Source: Chloroflexota bacterium
GTDB taxonomy: Bacteria > Chloroflexota > Limnocylindria > P2-11E
Assembly (NCBI GenBank): GCA_005881885.1
Contig: VBDX01000130.1
Span: 1,882-65,881 of the forward strand
Reading direction: 5' to 3'
DNA length: 64,000 nucleotides
The position numbers and the translations under genes are program-made. Below, one piece after another: positions 10,908-57,280 of the stretch. The notes under the pieces are model-generated. The model saw nothing but the letters and a program-made list of their open reading frames with translations, made no database searches and was not told the origin of the DNA. Within the stretch, counting starts at the first letter, position 1; every line of letters starts with the position of its first letter.

Positions 10908-11693
10908 GTGCCCAGAAAAGTGACGACGTCCATCGCCACGGCCCACGAGGCCGATGCCGAGCGCCGGCACGAGCACCGCTTTCAAGTGAGCGAGAGCATC
11001 GCTCGCCTCGTGATGCGCACGACGGCCAACAACCTCCCGCTCTCCCGCGACGATCGGCCCTACCAGTGGTCCACGACGACGTACTGCGACACGCTCAACT
11101 GGTCGATCTTCCGCGCGGCCCAGAAGGGATCGGCGATGCAGCTCCGCATCCGCGAGTACCACCGCACGCGGCCCCAGGGTGTGATGAATCCGGGAGCCGC
11201 GTGGATCGAGTTCAAGGACGACGAGGAGGACACCTCGCTCAAGGAGCGGTTCGGCGTCTCGATGGACGTCGCTCGTTCGTTCCTGCGCGGTGAGATCGCG
11301 CTGCCGGATCCCGATCACGGGCTTGCCGAACGCGCAGGGCGTCTCCTGAAGGATGGGGCGCGCCCGGTCGTGGTCACGCAGTACAACCGTCTCGCATACA
11401 ACTCCCTCGATACCGCGATCCGCATCACCGCCGATCACAACCTCATGTACTTCGCGTTGCCCTGGGAGGCGCGGGACGACAACGATCAGCCGTCTCCGCT
11501 CGGGACGCTCCTCGCGATGGAGCCCGATGTGATCGTCGAGATGAAGTGGTACGGCGAGCTTCCCCACTGGGCAATCGACCTGCACGCGTATCTGAAGGAG
11601 AACACTCACGAGGAGCGGCCCTCGAAGTTCATCGTCGCGATGCGCTGGTTGCTCGGGGAGACCGACGGAGCGAAGAAGAAGAAAAAGAAGTGA
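10908..11693 (+). CDS. VTC-domain (polyphosphate polymerase / CYTH-like) protein with C-terminal poly-Lys tail
   Basis: Matches bacterial VTC motifs: E.KF.V (EHRFQVSES), Y.I.S.YFDT (YQWSTTTYCDTLNW), K.RIR.Y (MQLRIREYH), F.E.K (AWIEFKDDEED..KERFGV). It ends in KKKKKK, encoded by AAGAAGAAGAAAAAGAAG. Confidence 0.7.
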   Translation: MPRKVTTSIATAHEADAERRHEHRFQVSESIARLVMRTTANNLPLSRDDRPYQWSTTTYCDTLNWSIFRAAQKGSAMQLRIREYHRTRPQGVMNPGAAWIEFKDDEEDTSLKERFGVSMDVARSFLRGEIALPDPDHGLAERAGRLLKDGARPVVVTQYNRLAYNSLDTAIRITADHNLMYFALPWEARDDNDQPSPLGTLLAMEPDVIVEMKWYGELPHWAIDLHAYLKENTHEERPSKFIVAMRWLLGETDGAKKKKKK

Positions 11694-13000
11694 AGGCTGT
11701 GGAGGAGACCATCCGCTCGGACGCGCCGGCCACGCGCGTGGTCGTCGTCGAGGACGACCAGGCCTCCGCCGACGTCCTCCAGCGGCGCCTGCAGGCGAAC
11801 GGGATGGTGGTCTCCGTGGCGCACGATGGGCGGCGTGGCATCGAGCTCGTCGAGGAGCTGCTTCCGGACCTCGTGCTCCTCGACGTGATGCTCCCCGACA
11901 CCGACGGCTACGACGTCTGCCTGCGCATCAAGAGCAACAGCACGACCGCGCCGATCCCGGTGATCTTCCTCTCGGCGCGCGGCGAGGTCGTGGACAAGGT
12001 CCGCGGCCTCTCGTGCGGCGCCGCCGACTACATCACCAAGCCCTTCCAAGCCGCGGAGCTCCTCGCCCGGATCGACGCGGTGCTGGGACAGGCGCGGAAT
12101 CCGCGCGTCCCGCGCCTGGCTCGGTCAGCGGAGCGCGCAGCCGGCGAGCGGCGCGTGGCGCGGGTCGCGATCGTGGACGGAGCGCTGCGCGCGCACGTCG
12201 AGCAGCTTCTCGCCACACGGTTCGACCTCGCGGAGGACAGCGATATGCCGGACGTCGTGGTGCTCGAGGGTAATGCGTCCGTCCCGGCCGACGCGCCGGA
12301 AGACGTCGCCGTCGTGCGCGTGACCGCCGGACGCGGATCGGACGACCGCGCAGAGCTCGTCCCGGTCGACGCCCAGCTGCCGCGGATCGTCGACCTTACC
12401 GTTCGCGAGCGCGGGCTCGACCACGACCTGCAAGCCGCGGCGGAAGCGTTGATCGTGCTCGCCGCCGCCATTGCGTCCCACGACCGCCCGACCACCGGTC
12501 ACACCGAACGCGTCGCCGCCCGAGCGGTGCAGATCGGCCGCGCGCTGGGCCTCGACGAATCGACGCGAATGACCATCCGGCTCGGTGCGCTGCTTCGCGA
12601 CGTCGGCCATGCGCGACTCCCAGGCTCGCTCCTCGCGAAGTCGGGCGAGCTCGGTCCTGACGAGCGCGCGATGCTCGAGCGCCACCCGGTGCTCGGCGAA
12701 GAGATCCTGGCCGGGTTCAAACGGCTCTCCGGTCTCCTGCCGATCGTTCGCCACCATCACGAGCGGCTCGACGGGACCGGCTACCCAGATGGGCTGCGTG
12801 CGGAGCAGATCCCCTTGGAGGTGCGCATCGTGACGGTGGCGGACCGCTTCGAGGCGCTCCTTGCGGACCGGCCCGATCGGCCGGCGGTCTCGGAATCGGA
12901 AGCGGTGCGGATCCTTCAGGGCGCGGTCGCGCGCGGCGAGCTGGACGCGGCGGTCGTCGCCGCGCTCGCGACGCAAGTGCGTGCGTACGGAGGGAATTGA
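11690..13000 (+). CDS. response regulator fused to HD-GYP phosphodiesterase
   Basis: REC domain (VVVVEDDQ, LVLLDVMLPD, TKPF) followed by HD-GYP (HTERVA..., HHERLDGTGYPDGL). Chosen start is the GTG at 11690 overlapping the VTC stop (GTGA). The ORF as given opens at 11546 but that would overlap VTC by 150 bp. Confidence 0.8.
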   Translation: MKAVEETIRSDAPATRVVVVEDDQASADVLQRRLQANGMVVSVAHDGRRGIELVEELLPDLVLLDVMLPDTDGYDVCLRIKSNSTTAPIPVIFLSARGEVVDKVRGLSCGAADYITKPFQAAELLARIDAVLGQARNPRVPRLARSAERAAGERRVARVAIVDGALRAHVEQLLATRFDLAEDSDMPDVVVLEGNASVPADAPEDVAVVRVTAGRGSDDRAELVPVDAQLPRIVDLTVRERGLDHDLQAAAEALIVLAAAIASHDRPTTGHTERVAARAVQIGRALGLDESTRMTIRLGALLRDVGHARLPGSLLAKSGELGPDERAMLERHPVLGEEILAGFKRLSGLLPIVRHHHERLDGTGYPDGLRAEQIPLEVRIVTVADRFEALLADRPDRPAVSESEAVRILQGAVARGELDAAVVAALATQVRAYGGN

Positions 13001-13001
13001 C

Positions 13002-13709
13002 GTGGCCGATAAAGACATACGCGTCGTGATCGTCGACGATGAACGACTATTCGCCGAGTTGATGCGAGTCGCCCTCAGGGCGGCGGATGGCATCGAGGTC
13101 CAGGCGGTGGTCCACGATGTGAAGGCCGCGATCGCCGCGCTTCACGAGTACAAGCCGGATGTCGTCATCGCCGACTATCACCTGCCGGACGGGACCGGCG
13201 CGGATCTCGCGCGCGCGGTGCGTGGGTCCTTGCCGGACACCTCCGTCCTCGTGCTCACGGCCGATCCGTCCGCGGCGACGCTGAACGACGTCGCGCGTTC
13301 GGGCGCGGTCGGCCACATGACGAAAGGTCGGGGCCTCACCGAGGTCGTGGACAGCGTTCGCTCGGCGGCGTCCGGCGAGATCCTCTTCGCCCCGAGCGAG
13401 CTGCAGCGCCTCCTGCTGGAGAGCGCGGCGGCGCGGAAAGTGATCGAGCCGCTCACCGCCCGCGAGCTCGAGGTGCTTCGGCTCCTGGCCGGCGGGACGA
13501 GCACATCGGCGGCCGCGGAGTCGCTCGGGATCTCCACCGCGACGCTCCGCGCGCATGTGCAGGCCGTGCTCCGCAAGCTCGGCGCGCACTCGCGTCTCGA
13601 GGCCGTGGCCGAAGCGGCCCGGCTCGGGCTCGTCACCCTGGAGTCCTGGACGCGCGACCGCCCGACTCCCCCGCGCGGGGGAAACGGTCCGGCCCCCGAA
13701 CGGTCATAA
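13002..13709 (+). CDS. NarL/FixJ-family response regulator (REC + LuxR HTH)
   Basis: GTG 2 nt after the upstream stop. REC domain (IRVVIVDDE, VVIADYHLPD) plus LuxR-type HTH (LTARELEVLRLLAGG.S...AAESLGIS..T...H). Confidence 0.8.
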   Translation: MADKDIRVVIVDDERLFAELMRVALRAADGIEVQAVVHDVKAAIAALHEYKPDVVIADYHLPDGTGADLARAVRGSLPDTSVLVLTADPSAATLNDVARSGAVGHMTKGRGLTEVVDSVRSAASGEILFAPSELQRLLLESAAARKVIEPLTARELEVLRLLAGGTSTSAAAESLGISTATLRAHVQAVLRKLGAHSRLEAVAEAARLGLVTLESWTRDRPTPPRGGNGPAPERS

Positions 13710-13768
13710 GTCCATCCTTTCGGGGGTGGGGCCGGTAGGACCCACCGCTAGCATCGGAGGCGAAAGAA

Positions 13769-14140
13769 ATGGCAAAACTGCTCGTAGCCGACGACCTGGT
13801 GCCCATCCGTCAGATGGTCCGGATCACCCTGTCCACCCAGGGCTGGACGATCGTCGAGGCGAAGAACGGCAATGAGGCGCTCGACCTGGTCCGGTCCGAG
13901 AAGCCAGACCTCGTCCTCCTGGACGTGGATATGGGCCCCGGCCCTAACGGCTTCGACGTCTGCCGCCAGATCAAGGCTGACGAGGCCACGAAGGACATCC
14001 CCGTGGTCATGCTCACGGCGCACGAAAGCGACAGTGACCGCGCGATCGGGTTTGCGGCCGGAGCGACGCAGTACCTGACCAAACCGTTCGGGCCGCTGGA
14101 GCTCATCGACACGATCCGCGGGATCCTCGCGCACAGCTAG
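13769..14140 (+). CDS. single-domain response regulator
   Basis: 123 aa receiver (LLVADD, LVLLDVDMG, TKPF). Confidence 0.85.
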   Translation: MAKLLVADDLVPIRQMVRITLSTQGWTIVEAKNGNEALDLVRSEKPDLVLLDVDMGPGPNGFDVCRQIKADEATKDIPVVMLTAHESDSDRAIGFAAGATQYLTKPFGPLELIDTIRGILAHS

Positions 14141-14146
14141 ATCGCC

Positions 14147-15133
14147 ATGGGCGCCGACGACACCAAGGAAATGATCGAGACGATGGACGCGTCGCCGCGC
14201 CTACCCGACATCACGGGCGAGGAGCAAGGCTCCGACGTCTTCCGTCAGCTCCTGCACCAGGCCGTCCGCGTCGCCGACCTGGCGAACGCCCAGGCCATGC
14301 GCATGGCGCTCGACTTCGCGAAGGTCTACGAGCGCGAGCAGGGCGTTCGCCATGAGTTCCAGTCGCAGCTCAAGCAGATGACGCTCATGGAGAAGCAGGC
14401 GACGCGCTACGCGGAGGACCTCGCCTCGATGCTCCGCAGCGAGCGCGAGCGCCGGCAGGAGCTCGAGCGCGCGCTCGAGCAGGAGCGCGTCGCGAACGAG
14501 GAGCTCCGCCGGACGGGCCTCCAGGGCATCAGTCACCTGCTCCTCGCGGCGACGATCAAGGACCGCACCACCGGCGAGCATCTGCAGCGGGTACGCGGAT
14601 ACGTCGAGGCGATCGCCCAGCGGCTCGGTCTGCCCGCCGATCTCGTCGAGGAGTTCGGGTACTCGAGTGTCATGCACGACGTCGGCAAGATCCACACGCC
14701 GGACCACATCCTTCAGAGCGAGCATCACCTCACGGATGAGCAGTTCGGCGTCATCAAGCAGCACTGCATCGATGGCGAGAAGATGCTCGGCGAGGCGAGG
14801 TTCTTCGAGACGGCGCGGGCGATCGCCCGCGAGCATCACGAGCGCTGGGACGGGCGGGGCTATCCCGACGGCAAGAAGGGCGAGGAGATCTCGCTCGCGG
14901 CGCGAATCGTCTCGGTCGCCGACGTCTTCGACGCGCTCACCTCGAAACGTCCATACAAAGACGCGTGGTCGGCCGACGCCGGCCTCAAGGCGATCGAGAA
15001 GGACGCCGGCGAGCGCTTTGACCCCGAGGTCGTGAGCGCCTTCGTCGCGCTGTCCCGCGAGGGCGTGGTCGAGACGATCAGGTTCGAGGTCGCGGCGAAC
15101 GCCCCCGCGCAGAACGGAAGCTCAGCCAAGTGA
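14147..15133 (+). CDS. HD-GYP domain c-di-GMP phosphodiesterase
   Basis: HD motif MHDVGKIHTPD and HHERWDGRGYPDG (the GYP signature). It starts 6 bp after the receiver gene. Confidence 0.85.
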   Translation: MGADDTKEMIETMDASPRLPDITGEEQGSDVFRQLLHQAVRVADLANAQAMRMALDFAKVYEREQGVRHEFQSQLKQMTLMEKQATRYAEDLASMLRSERERRQELERALEQERVANEELRRTGLQGISHLLLAATIKDRTTGEHLQRVRGYVEAIAQRLGLPADLVEEFGYSSVMHDVGKIHTPDHILQSEHHLTDEQFGVIKQHCIDGEKMLGEARFFETARAIAREHHERWDGRGYPDGKKGEEISLAARIVSVADVFDALTSKRPYKDAWSADAGLKAIEKDAGERFDPEVVSAFVALSREGVVETIRFEVAANAPAQNGSSAK

Positions 15134-15545
15134 TCGCGCCGCCTGCGGCGGCGCTCACGAGGATCGATAGCAGAACGAAGACGGCCAGCGACCAGGTCGT
15201 GAACTCATCCGGAATCCCGAAGCGCGAGACCGTCTCGCTCAAATAATCGCGAACGAAAAGCGCCCGCACCGTCCCGCCCAGGAATCCGGCGACGAGGCCG
15301 ACGACGGCGCCCGTGCGCAGGGCCAGTCCTTCGTCCAGAGCCAGGCGCGCGACGAACCAGCCGAGCGCCGCATAGACCGCCACCGAGAGGATGAAGCCGA
15401 GCAGGGTGAGCGCCGCGCCGCCAAGCGCGAGCGCGGGACGACCGCGTCCGGGGAGGTCCGCGAGCTGCTCCGCGCTCGCCGCCGACTCGGCCGCACCGAT
15501 CGCGACGAGCGCGCCGACGGCGAGCGTCATGGCCAGGTACCTCAT
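15078..15545 (-). CDS. small membrane protein
   Basis: This is the C-terminal 155 aa of the spurious 810-aa ORF. It begins MRYLAMTLAVGALVAIG with a signal-like N-terminus and 3-4 TM helices. The reverse-strand frame here reads as low-complexity Ala/Ser/Pro. Confidence 0.5.
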   Translation of the reverse strand: MRYLAMTLAVGALVAIGAAESAASAEQLADLPGRGRPALALGGAALTLLGFILSVAVYAALGWFVARLALDEGLALRTGAVVGLVAGFLGGTVRALFVRDYLSETVSRFGIPDEFTTWSLAVFVLLSILVSAAAGGAITWLSFRSARGRSPRPRT

Positions 15546-16269
15546 GCGGGCACCTTCGGGTCCGCCGCTTGCTCCGTCAACTCGCGTGAGTGCCGGCAAG
15601 GGGGACAGGCCCCCCTCGAACCTCCCGGAAGCCGGGCCCGAGCCCGGCCATGAATATCCCGAGCTTCCGGAGACCAGGAGTATCGGGGCGTGGCGGGATG
15701 CCGCGGCCCACTGCAAAGCCTGCGACCTCTGGACGAAAGCGACCCAGACCGTCTTCGGGGAGGGGAAGCGGACCGCCAAGGTCATCTTCGTCGGCGAGCA
15801 GCCCGGCGACAAGGAAGACATCGCGGGCCGACCGTTCGTCGGTCCCGCAGGCCGTGTCCTTGACGAGGCGCTGGAGGCGGCCGGCATCGACCGCGACACG
15901 GTGTATGTGACGAACGCGGTGAAGCACTTCAAATGGCGGACCGGCGGAAAGCGGCGGCTCCATGAGAAGCCCAACCGCAGCGAGATCGCGGCGTGCCGCT
16001 TGTGGCTCGACGCCGAGATCGCCATCCTCAAGCCGCAGGTGATCGTCTGTCTCGGCGCCACGGCGGCGCAGGCGCTCCTCTCGCCGACCTTCAAGGTGAC
16101 GAAAGAGCGCGGGAAGCTCATCCCGTCCCCGCTCGCGCCGCACGTGCTCGCGACCGTGCATCCGTCGTCGATCCTCCGAGCACCGGATGACGCGAGCCGC
16201 GAGCGCGAGATGCGCCTGTTCGTCGAGGATCTGCGCGCCGTCGCGAAAGTCATCCGCGGTCTCTGCTGA
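15544..16269 (+). CDS. udgX: family-4 uracil-DNA glycosylase, UdgX-like
   Basis: CKACDLW Fe-S cysteines, GEQPG motif A, HPSS motif B. It also has the UdgX-specific insertion loop GGKRRLHEKPN (KRRIH in M. smegmatis UdgX). An alternative GTG start lies at 15586. Confidence 0.75.
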   Translation: MRAPSGPPLAPSTRVSAGKGDRPPSNLPEAGPEPGHEYPELPETRSIGAWRDAAAHCKACDLWTKATQTVFGEGKRTAKVIFVGEQPGDKEDIAGRPFVGPAGRVLDEALEAAGIDRDTVYVTNAVKHFKWRTGGKRRLHEKPNRSEIAACRLWLDAEIAILKPQVIVCLGATAAQALLSPTFKVTKERGKLIPSPLAPHVLATVHPSSILRAPDDASREREMRLFVEDLRAVAKVIRGLC

Positions 16270-17410
16270 GCTCCTCCTCCCCACGCATGACCAGCGTCCC
16301 CGCGAGGGCGCACAAGCCAATGAGTCCGACGAAGCCCCAGGCCGCCGCGAAGCCCCAGGTCTGCACCGCATAGCCCATGACCGGCGCTCCGATCATCACT
16401 CCCGCCGTTCCCCCGGCCGCCGCCATACCCTGGGCCGCGCCTGGCGCCCGCCGAAGCGACGCGGCGGCGGTGTTGAACACAGGGGCGTAGGGGAGACCGA
16501 CGCCCGCTCCGAGGATGATCGCGCCGGCGAGAGCGACCGCGAGGGGCCGTCCGGGAATGGCGAGCAGCGCGACACCCATCACGGCCGCCACGTCGCCGAT
16601 CCGCATCACTCCCTTCGTCCGCGCGAGTCCTTTCGTCACCGCGAGTCCGCCGAGCGGGCGCGTGACCACCGCGACGAAGAGGAGGGTCGAGCCAAGGATC
16701 CCCGACAGCGCGAGCGTTAGCGAGAACTCGCGGAGGAGGAACACCGTGATCCAAGAGCCCGAGGCGATCGCGAGACCGAACCCCGCCGCATGCTGCAGAC
16801 TGACGAGCCAGCAATTCGCGCAGCGCAGGGCGTCGAGCATGCTCCCCTCGCGGCGCGCGCCTCTGACCGACGGCGCAGCGAGCCAGACGCCCAGGACCGC
16901 CGCGAGCGCGACCGCCTCGAGTCCGAACGATGCGCGCCAGCCGCCGATCGTGGCGGCGACGGTCGGCGTCGCAAGAAGCGCGAGCGCGGATCCGAGCGGA
17001 AAGCCGGCGCCGTAGAGACCGAGTGCGAAGTGTGGCTGAGCCGTCCCGTAGAGACCGGCGATGTACCGCGCGGCGGCCACGAAAGCGAGCGCTGAACCGA
17101 CGCCCTGTACCGCCTTTGCCGCTAGCAGAACGGGGAACCCGTTCCCCGCGGCGAAGATGGCCGTCCCGGCGATCGAAACGGCGAGGCCAACGCCGATCGC
17201 CCGTTTCGGGCCGATCCGGTCCGGAACGCCACTGGTCAGGAGCGTCGTGGCGATGTACGCGACGAAGAGCGCGGCCGAGAGGAGTCCGGCCTGGGCGTCG
17301 GACAGACCGAGGTCGGCCGCAAGGAGCGGGAGGAGCGCGGCGTGATCGGAGTACGTGGCGCCGAAGCCGATCGCGACCGCCGTGACAAGCCCGACCCCGA
17401 GCGCGCGCAT
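16250..17410 (-). CDS. MFS transporter
   Basis: 386 aa with 12 predicted TM helices and an MFS signature loop G.PDRIGPKRAI. Confidence 0.8.
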   Translation of the reverse strand: MRALGVGLVTAVAIGFGATYSDHAALLPLLAADLGLSDAQAGLLSAALFVAYIATTLLTSGVPDRIGPKRAIGVGLAVSIAGTAIFAAGNGFPVLLAAKAVQGVGSALAFVAAARYIAGLYGTAQPHFALGLYGAGFPLGSALALLATPTVAATIGGWRASFGLEAVALAAVLGVWLAAPSVRGARREGSMLDALRCANCWLVSLQHAAGFGLAIASGSWITVFLLREFSLTLALSGILGSTLLFVAVVTRPLGGLAVTKGLARTKGVMRIGDVAAVMGVALLAIPGRPLAVALAGAIILGAGVGLPYAPVFNTAAASLRRAPGAAQGMAAAGGTAGVMIGAPVMGYAVQTWGFAAAWGFVGLIGLCALAGTLVMRGEEELSRDRG

Positions 17411-17573
17411 CCCTGCCGACGCTACGCGAACGGGCTGACCGGCGGCCGGTAACCCGTCCTGAACGTTTCCGCGGCCCTGCTAGATTCCGGCCACCGAACC
17501 GCTCGAGCACGGCGGCACTAGTGGGTATGGATGCCGCAGTCAGCGGCCAGATTGGCGGGAGGGGACCCTCGAA

Positions 17574-19274
17574 ATGCGTCGATTAGTGGCCAGCATCACC
17601 GCGGCGCTCCTCGTGGTAACGGCCTGCACCGCGACACCGACGACAACGCCACAGACGTCGGCCGGCGAGAAGCCGGTCGCCGGCGGAACTCTGGTCAGGG
17701 CGGTAACCGGTGATCCGAAGTCATTTAATCCGATCCTGGTGACCGATACGACGTCGTATCGCTACATCGAGGCGGTCTATCAAGACCTCCTTCGCCGTGA
17801 TGCCAAAACCAACGAGCTGACGGGTCGCCTCGCGGAGAAGTTCGAGCTCAGCAAGGACGGGCTCACGCTGACCTACACGCTGCGCGACGGGCTCAAGTGG
17901 AGCGACGGCACGCCGTTCACTGGGGAGGATTACAAGTACACCGCCGAAGCGACGATGCGCAGCAAGCGGACGACCCGCCAGAACGTGTTTCAGAACGTTC
18001 TGGGCGCCCAGGATTACAAGGAAGGCAAGACCGACGAGATCACGGGCATCCAGCTCAAAGACGGCGGCAAGACCATCGTCATCACCTTCAGCAAGACCTT
18101 GTGCACGGCGGTCGAAGACCTTTCAGGCGCTGGCGCCGGATACATGCTCCCGAGCAAGCAGTTCAAGCAGTACTTCGATCCGCGCACGACTGACACGAGC
18201 AAGACCATCGACGACAACCCGCTGAATATGGCGCCTCCGGCGTCGATGGGCCCCTGGGTCTTCAAGGACTTTAAGCCGGGTGACCGTGCGACCTATTCAA
18301 AGAACCCGAACTATTACCTCGGCGCGCCGCTCATCGACGAACTCATCATCAAGGTGTACTCGGACGCGGCTGCCATCAAGGCGGCGCTCCTCGTCGGTGA
18401 AGTGTCCTTCGCGGCAGTCGAGCCGAAGGACTGGGACGAGCTCGCGAAGGTCGACACCCTCAAGGGCTTCGAGTTCGCCGACTTTGGCTGGAACTACCTG
18501 GCCTGGAACGCCGACTCGACCAAGGCGCCCTGGCTCGCGAGCAAGCTCGTGCGCCAGGCCTTGACCTACGGACTCAACCGACAGGCCATCATCGACAAGA
18601 TCGTCTTCGGTCACGGGAAGCTGGTCTATGCGGCACAGCCGCCGGCCAACGCGGCGTACAAGGACGACGATCTCAACAAGTACCCGTTCGACCCGCAAAA
18701 GGCGAAACAACTCCTCGAGCAGGCCGGCGCGAAGATGGGTTCCGATGGCATCTACCGCTGGACCGACGGTACGCCAATGAAGATGCGCATCGAAACGAAT
18801 CAGCCGAATACGGTCCGCGAGACGATCCTCCAGCTCACGCAGGAGCAGTACAAGCAGATCGGCGTCTCGATCGACGCCCAGTTGATGTCGTTCAACACCT
18901 TGCTCGAGAGGATCCGCTGCTGCGGGAAAGACTTCGAAGGCTGGATCAGCGGATTTACCGGCTTGGGACCGGATCCCGATCAGGAGAGTCTCTGGCACTC
19001 GCGGCACATCGCCGCCAATGAGTTCAACCGCTGGCGGTACAGCAACCCACAAGTCGACCAGACGCTCGACCAGATTCACAGCGGCCCGGATTGCAACGAA
19101 GCGACGCGCAACAAGCTCGCGCACGACGTTGACAAGCAGCTGAACGAAGACGCTCCGGTGATCTGGCTGTACTCGGGGAACAACCTCATCTTCGGGCAGA
19201 AGAACATCCAGAACTTCGCGCCGACGTCGGTGAGCACGATCTACAACATCGAGCAGTGGTGGATCAAGAAATAG
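17574..19274 (+). CDS. ABC transporter substrate-binding lipoprotein, family 5 (peptide/nickel type)
   Basis: 566 aa. Lipobox VVTAC. Length and layout of DppA/OppA-like binding proteins. Confidence 0.85.
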   Translation: MRRLVASITAALLVVTACTATPTTTPQTSAGEKPVAGGTLVRAVTGDPKSFNPILVTDTTSYRYIEAVYQDLLRRDAKTNELTGRLAEKFELSKDGLTLTYTLRDGLKWSDGTPFTGEDYKYTAEATMRSKRTTRQNVFQNVLGAQDYKEGKTDEITGIQLKDGGKTIVITFSKTLCTAVEDLSGAGAGYMLPSKQFKQYFDPRTTDTSKTIDDNPLNMAPPASMGPWVFKDFKPGDRATYSKNPNYYLGAPLIDELIIKVYSDAAAIKAALLVGEVSFAAVEPKDWDELAKVDTLKGFEFADFGWNYLAWNADSTKAPWLASKLVRQALTYGLNRQAIIDKIVFGHGKLVYAAQPPANAAYKDDDLNKYPFDPQKAKQLLEQAGAKMGSDGIYRWTDGTPMKMRIETNQPNTVRETILQLTQEQYKQIGVSIDAQLMSFNTLLERIRCCGKDFEGWISGFTGLGPDPDQESLWHSRHIAANEFNRWRYSNPQVDQTLDQIHSGPDCNEATRNKLAHDVDKQLNEDAPVIWLYSGNNLIFGQKNIQNFAPTSVSTIYNIEQWWIKK

Positions 19275-56989: not shown

Positions 56990-57060
<71 letters not shown>

Positions 57061-57280
57061 CAGATTCGAGGAAATCGCGGTCCCGCGAGGCTGCAAGCCA
57101 TAGATTCTGCAGATCTTTGTCGTGGCAGCGAATCCTTTTGCCGAAGAAACTTTGTTGCCGAGACACGGGTCCGCCCGCCAAAGGCAAGGGTCTGCAGGAC
57201 AAAGGTCTGCGCGGGCTGGCTTCACGACAGCGCAGCGCTGGTAGATGCGACCTCCGCGTGGGCTGACTGTGAATTCGCGC

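Follow-up and report, generated by a model that had tools for sequence, protein, structure and literature searches.

The locus lies in a window (the whole stretch of DNA that was analysed, 64 kb of a Chloroflexota contig, ~70% GC) and comprises a udgX gene set between a divergent gene for a predicted membrane protein and a convergent transporter gene. Residue numbers below refer to the 241-aa form of the protein (from ATG 15544). The features of the immediate locus are as follows:

15078–15545, minus strand: divergent gene whose 155-aa product is predicted to be a membrane protein and matches no family; syntenic only in close relatives
15546–15585: 40-bp spacer that separates udgX from the divergent membrane-protein gene, holding the 14-mer GCTTGCTCCGTCAA at 15567–15580
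15586–16269, plus strand: coding sequence of udgX, with GTG 15586 as its most likely start (227 aa) and a TGA stop at 16267–16269
15544, plus strand: alternative udgX start (ATG), giving 241 aa; the start taken in the first-pass annotation and by a gene caller for the 99%-identical homolog P0001
16250–17410, minus strand: convergent MFS transporter gene (Pfam MFS_1), whose final 20 bp overlap the 3′ end of udgX

Boundaries and surroundings of the udgX gene

The open reading frame and all of the motifs quoted for it in the first-pass annotation are present, in frame with ATG 15544 and ending at TGA 16267–16269. Third-position GC (GC3) runs at 0.80–0.95 from ~15600 to the stop codon; this bias, together with 60–78 invariant columns across homologs, led us to judge the coding signal real. 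Frames that overlap the gene were discarded. We rejected a 292-aa ORF from ATG 15391 as an over-extension into the membrane-protein gene, because 15391–15545 codes the minus-strand membrane protein (GC3 0.85–0.95 in that frame) and because such an N-terminus occurs only in one similarly over-called homolog (P0004). An 810-aa minus-strand ORF (15078–17510) and a 264-aa antisense ORF (15577–16371) are high-GC shadow ORFs and not genes; equivalent antisense ORFs across udgX recur in 59 of 86 high-GC loci, and are artefacts of GC-rich codon usage.

The true start of udgX is probably GTG 15586 (227 aa) rather than ATG 15544, a reading of the sequence favoured by several features. The N-terminus of homolog P0003, MNAGEGGRPPSN, is homologous to the (V→M)SAGKGDRPPSN of the window, which begins at GTG 15586; the divergent spacer is 41 bp as annotated in three related contigs (L001–L003), and GTG 15586 gives 40 bp; GC3 falls to 0.6 in both candidate frames over 15541–15600; residues 1–35 of the 241-aa AlphaFold2 model have low pLDDT; and most udgX relatives are 220–227 aa long. 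The upstream 14-mer argues for the same start. It is identical in five related contigs (L001 5981–5994, L002 1275–1288, L003 1400–1413, L004 204–217, L005 991–1004) amid variable flanking spacer bases, occurs once in the window, and sits 6 nt ahead of the called udgX start in L001–L004 and 5 nt ahead of GTG 15586 here. The 99%-identical contig L005 is called from the upstream ATG, giving a 13-bp spacer.

This placement bears on the earlier description of the 5′ end as overlapping, or divergently abutting, the membrane-protein gene. Taken literally the description stands, in that the palindrome CATG (15543–15546) serves both ATG 15544 and the start codon of the membrane-protein gene on the minus strand, but a start at GTG 15586 turns the overlap into a 40-bp divergent spacer, so that it has probably gone. 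At the 3′ end, the 20-bp overlap claimed with the convergent MFS gene is exact (16250–16269), and recurs in relatives L001, L002, and L005.

On the minus strand the 14-mer reads TTGACGGAGCAAGC, which is TTGACG/−35-like. Searches across 15000–16700 gave no sigma-70-like promoters and no clear Shine-Dalgarno sequence upstream of udgX; two terminator-like matches in the same region both fall inside the membrane-protein gene, at chance level. Operator-like inverted repeats were not found in the divergent spacer.

The MFS gene is a neighbour and not a system component. Other neighbours encode a LuxR-type response regulator, a single-domain receiver and an HD-GYP-type HD_5 protein (14147–15133), with an Opp-like peptide ABC system and an HtrA-like protease further along; only close relatives from the lineage share this gene order. 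When the ORFs lying up to 6 kb on either side of udgX were all clustered for 85 loci plus the window, no conserved partner emerged from these 86 loci: nothing but udgX and the shadow ORFs antisense to it recurs, and the neighbour clusters that come next (SDR, ABC ATPase, ParA, aldo-keto reductase) are generic and reach at most 8 loci each. No neighbouring repair genes that would support a DNA-repair role were found. Within the 64-kb window, tblastn with UdgX and TthUDGA detected no second UDG paralog (udgX was the sole match), and tblastn with three TIGR03915 domains returned no match at E<0.2. An association with radical-SAM/TIGR03915 was considered and set aside, as it takes the form of fusions elsewhere in the family and is absent from the window. 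The udgX gene is here monocistronic and stand-alone, between its divergent and convergent neighbours.

Three further observations concern the wider window. The signalling cluster at 10908–15133 (VTC-domain protein, LuxR-type response regulator, stand-alone receiver, and HD-GYP-type HD_5 protein) has the same order in L001 and, as far as can be told, is unrelated to udgX. The Opp-like block at 17574–~21200 (SBP_bac_5 and permeases) has a GC content of 0.60–0.65 against ~0.70 in its flanks; it is missing between the MFS and Rv1265-like/HtrA genes in L001 and L003, is present in the 99%-identical L005, and looks like a lineage-specific insertion. A tRNA-Cys (GCA) gene at 56990–57061 (plus strand) was the sole RNA gene detected in the 64-kb window (ARAGORN; Rfam at the gathering threshold).

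Assignment to the UdgX class and placement of the R-loop

Four independent lines place the protein in the UdgX class: a phmmer search of the PDB, the curated model TIGR03914, a MAFFT alignment of the R-loop, and a fold comparison using AlphaFold2 and Foldseek. Against all PDB sequences, the top 24 matches were all Mycobacterium smegmatis UdgX (MsmUdgX) or its mutants (E 7e-65 to 2e-62), with the canonical family-4 UDGs 1UI0, 1VK2/1L9G, and 4ZBX behind (E 6e-31 to 3e-26). By BLASTP the protein is 54% identical to MsmUdgX over 201 aa, and 43% identical to Thermus UDGA. Under the NCBIfam model TIGR03914 (‘UdgX family uracil-DNA binding protein’) it reaches 283.5 bits, the cut-off being 189.95; the family-4 model TIGR00758 is also passed (151.3 bits, cut-off 125.3), ~130 bits below TIGR03914, and Arch_udg gives 139.6 bits, under its cut-off of 250. 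Pfam reports a UDG superfamily domain only, and the protein is single-domain. Our AlphaFold2 model (48-sequence alignment, mean pLDDT 85.5, pTM 0.82) has UdgX structures as its best 30 Foldseek matches in the PDB (TM(target) 0.86–0.93, rmsd 1.2–2.0 Å), family-4 UDGs ranking after these at ~3 Å. The first-pass call of a UdgX-type enzyme is thus borne out: UdgX takes first place with the curated HMM as well as in the sequence and fold searches of the PDB, and the protein is almost certainly a member of the UdgX family.

Alignment with MsmUdgX, Thermus UDGA (Tth; sequence 100% identical to 1UI0_A) and Thermotoga TM0511 (Tma) locates the motifs and functional residues as follows:

15712–15723, plus strand: CKAC, with C57 and C60 as the first two predicted [4Fe-4S] ligands (Msm C24, C27), invariant in homologs
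15793–15807, plus strand: motif A, GEQPG, residues 84–88 (E85 = Msm E52, Q86 = Msm Q53), from the alignment
after motif A, plus strand: D89, D92, and F98 (Msm D56, D59, F65), from the alignment
15913–15927, plus strand: NAVKH, with N124 (predicted uracil recognition, Msm N91), K127 (Msm K94), and H128 (Msm H95)
15928–15963, plus strand: R-loop insertion FKWRTGGKRRLH, from the alignment and the AlphaFold2 model
15949–15963, plus strand: KRRLH, with the predicted crosslinking His140 at 15961–15963
15994–15996, plus strand: C151, predicted fourth Fe-S ligand (Msm C120), from the alignment
16159–16179, plus strand: motif B, HPSSILR, residues 206–212 (H206 = Msm H178, R212 = Msm R184), from the alignment

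The segment GGKRRLHEKPN, at residues 134–144, had been equated with the R-loop of MsmUdgX, and the alignment with this enzyme (MSMEG_0265) and with canonical family-4 UDGs agrees: K136-R137-R138-L139-H140 fall on Msm K105-R106-R107-I108-H109, with no sign of a displaced motif. R138 and H140 lie on Tth P87 and N89, within a 7-residue insertion relative to both Tth and Tma. G84-E85-Q86-P87-G88 fall on Msm G51–G55, with Q86 facing Tth G42. These positions are diagnostic, as R107/H109 mark UdgX and P107/N109 ordinary family-4 UDGs, and Q53 of GEQPG co-occurs with R107/H109 in >98% of sequences (Aroli et al., PMC10359453). The R-loop is modelled as a β-hairpin (strands 131–134 and 137–140), with a loop pLDDT of ~82.

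All residues to which mutagenesis or structures of MsmUdgX have assigned a role, including the coupling network E52, D56, D59, F65, N91, and K94 (PMC10776899, PMC10359453, PMC4787834), are identical here. The pairs (Msm/here) are E52/E85, Q53/Q86, D56/D89, D59/D92, F65/F98, N91/N124, K94/K127, R107/R138, H109/H140, H178/H206, and R184/R212. The Fe-S ligands C24, C27, H95, and C120 of MsmUdgX correspond to C57, C60, H128, and C151, which are invariant in homologs and are the predicted ligands of a [4Fe-4S] cluster; in UdgX, His replaces the third Fe-S Cys (PMC4787834). Across 17–48 homologs at 65–99% identity there is no variation in GEQPG, in the K/R/R/H residues of the R-loop, in HPS..R or in the Cys/His ligands, and among 120 close homologs GEQPG is found in 117 and HPSSILR in 111. 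One near-identical metagenomic homolog (P0005, 216 aa) is without the entire GEQPG/PFVGPAG segment (…GEGKRTGRVLDD…); it is probably an assembly or deletion variant, and is predicted to be inactive.

The closest characterised relative, MsmUdgX (PDB 6AIL, 6AJO, 6IO9, 6IOD), has the same fold (TM ~0.9, rmsd ~1.5 Å), and both proteins are stand-alone and single-domain. They have in common GEQPG, the KRR(I/L)H R-loop with its crosslinking His (predicted here), HPSS-LR and the Cys/Cys/His/Cys ligands. The differences are confined to Leu for Ile108, HPSSILR for HPSSLLR (a conservative change, Ile at position 5 of motif B against L/V in the published consensus HPS(S/A)(L/V)(L/V)R), a segment from VKH to KRR of 7 residues (FKWRTGG) against 9 (FKFTRAAGG), ~20 extra N-terminal residues that are poorly conserved and modelled at low confidence, and the host, which is Chloroflexota (Limnocylindria) rather than Actinomycetota.

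Canonical UdgA enzymes (Thermus thermophilus TTHA0718, 1UI0; Thermotoga maritima TM0511, 1VK2/1L9G) share the α/β fold, the [4Fe-4S] site (predicted here), and the GE-PG, F, N, and HP..LLR elements with which uracil is recognised and excised. UdgA enzymes turn over without crosslinking; they carry GE(G/A)PG, Cys as the third ligand and P/N, and are without the 7–9 residue insertion, whereas the present protein has Q86, H128, R138/H140, and the insertion. We consider it very likely to be a UdgX-class protein of the family-4 uracil-DNA glycosylase lineage that stands alone, probably from a soil-dwelling Candidatus Limnocylindria bacterium (Chloroflexota); its specificity for uracil and its crosslinking are predicted by analogy with MsmUdgX.

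Breadth of the family and variation in the loop

The first-pass annotation had described UdgX-type enzymes as rare; this does not hold, as we find ~1,100 clusters at 50% identity and at least 600 GTDB species-genome matches, across many phyla. A word-indexed search returned at least 8,000 homolog candidates, all at E≤1e-10, with some ordinary family-4 UDGs to be expected among them. An exhaustive comparison with 1.84 billion representatives at 50% identity gave 1,125 clusters at E≤1e-30. In the PDB search canonical family-4 enzymes reach 95–111 bits against the full-length protein, a score that would miss this threshold in so large a library, and 1,125 thus gives a rough size for the UdgX clade itself. 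With one genome taken per GTDB species, there were at least 600 pattern matches, 584 of them confirmed among the matches listed. The best 80 GTDB matches include Chloroflexota, Acidobacteriota, Verrucomicrobiota, Actinomycetota, Myxococcota, Nitrospirota, Gemmatimonadota, Dormibacterota, Eremiobacterota, Planctomycetota, Cyanobacteriota, and Alpha-, Beta-, and Gammaproteobacteria. The literature describes the distribution of UdgX as ‘sporadic’ or ‘limited and scattered’, a picture that is true per genome, yet the class is not rare, and ‘sporadic’ or ‘rare’ understates its breadth in soil metagenomes.

The 7-residue loop is present in all 120 close homologs, in 73 of 84 GTDB species-genome loci and in 90 of 111 motif-bearing 50%-identity representatives; KRRLH occurs in 18 of the 84 loci and 36 of the 111 representatives. 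The short loop, Leu for Ile108, and HPSSILR are none of them unusual within the UdgX family.

Around a quarter of the best 150 family representatives are 440–540-aa fusions of an N-terminal TIGR03915 ‘putative DNA repair’ domain to a UdgX domain (P0123, P0142, P0152, P0153, P0159, P0173, and P0181, for example), many with the 7-residue loop; their biochemistry is apparently unexplored in the literature examined. In these TIGR03915–UdgX fusions (~450–540 aa), the radical-SAM-linked TIGR03914 form, the C-terminal domain is UdgX (TIGR03914 250–300 bits) and often shares both the 7-residue loop and KRR(I/L)H with the present protein, which is without their N-terminal TIGR03915 domain.

Predicted crosslinking chemistry and its alternatives

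By analogy with MsmUdgX, the predicted [4Fe-4S] protein would flip uracil out of either ssDNA or dsDNA and into a pocket made up of F98, N124, H206, and the backbone of E85, where cleavage of the N-glycosidic bond would be aided by the E85 backbone, H206, and N124. In the same step, almost simultaneously, the R-loop His140 would attack C1′ of the deoxyribose; this residue is predicted to be activated or held by E85 and positioned by a D92-R138-D89 network, while Q86 would stabilise the loop. A stable C–N protein–DNA crosslink would result, and the protein would behave as a suicide enzyme; such a crosslink being irreversible, each molecule would act once. Given the conservation of the prototype's residues, we expect with considerable confidence that this protein crosslinks covalently. 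The physiological role of UdgX is not established even for the prototype; one proposal is that the UdgX complex marks uracil for RecA-dependent processing (Sang et al., PMC4787834).

We weighed three other accounts of the gene against covalent crosslinking by a UdgX-class protein. Were it a conventional multiple-turnover family-4 UDG (UdgA) that starts base excision repair, KRRLH would be an incidental loop; this would be in keeping with the passing TIGR00758 score and with the fold and Fe-S ligands that it shares with 1UI0 and 1VK2, but we consider it very improbable in view of a motif A that reads GEQPG and not GE(A/G)PG, of R138/H140 at the positions where canonical family-4 UDGs have P/N (the published discriminators, with their >98% co-occurrence of Q53), of a UdgX-specific HMM score 130 bits above that of the family-4 model, and of the UdgX-like His in place of the third Fe-S Cys. 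The scarcest credence goes to a decaying or non-expressed remnant that has inherited its motifs and lost its function. The reading frame is intact, with strong third-position GC bias, at least 60 columns (all catalytic residues included) are invariant in relatives at 65–99% identity, and the upstream 14-mer and synteny are conserved in several independent metagenomes; what speaks for decay is that no sigma-70-like promoter or clear Shine-Dalgarno sequence was found upstream, and that the divergent spacer is very short.

An account closer to the preferred one accepts the protein as a UdgX-clade member and supposes that its chemistry is changed by Leu139 and by the shorter loop of 7 residues, giving for instance slow turnover, binding that is tight but non-covalent, or a substrate preference or crosslink efficiency other than that of the mycobacterial prototype. 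We hold this to be unlikely. The 7-residue loop is the family majority (120/120, 73/84, and 90/111, as above) and KRRLH a frequent natural variant (18/84 and 36/111); the network residues E52, D56, D59, Q53, R107, and H109 are all conserved, and the modelled fold superposes on UdgX at ~1.5 Å. What speaks for altered chemistry is the loop itself, 2 residues shorter than in MsmUdgX, and the ease with which substitutions of H109 and mutations of the loop network make MsmUdgX a turnover UDG (PMC10359453, PMC10776899), from which it follows that the balance between crosslink and turnover is delicate. A full-text literature search for KRRLH, moreover, yielded no characterised enzyme with this motif and no UdgX paper, just irrelevant plant and epidemiology papers.

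This udgX is a new uncharacterised member of a well-described, automatically annotated family; a homolog at 82% identity from the same bacterial class (P0043) already bears the GenBank name ‘UdgX family uracil-DNA binding protein [Candidatus Limnocylindria bacterium]’. The UdgX family has been described since 2015 and is covered by a curated NCBI model and by more than 20 crystal structures; UdgX is in use as a reagent for uracil detection and DNA–protein conjugation. As the family is common in soil bacteria, the original identification of the gene is correct and unsurprising.

The discovery value of the locus is consequently small and its practical value modest: Limnocylindria orthologs with the commoner, shorter R-loop are candidate alternative reagents, and candidate probes of how loop length relates to crosslinking. 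As a long shot, the short-loop KRRLH form, dominant in uncultured soil phyla and apparently never characterised, might differ functionally from the 9-residue prototype. Were that so, differences could be looked for in crosslinking efficiency, partial turnover, or ssDNA/dsDNA preference, for example, and the textbook behaviour of UdgX would be that of a minority subtype.
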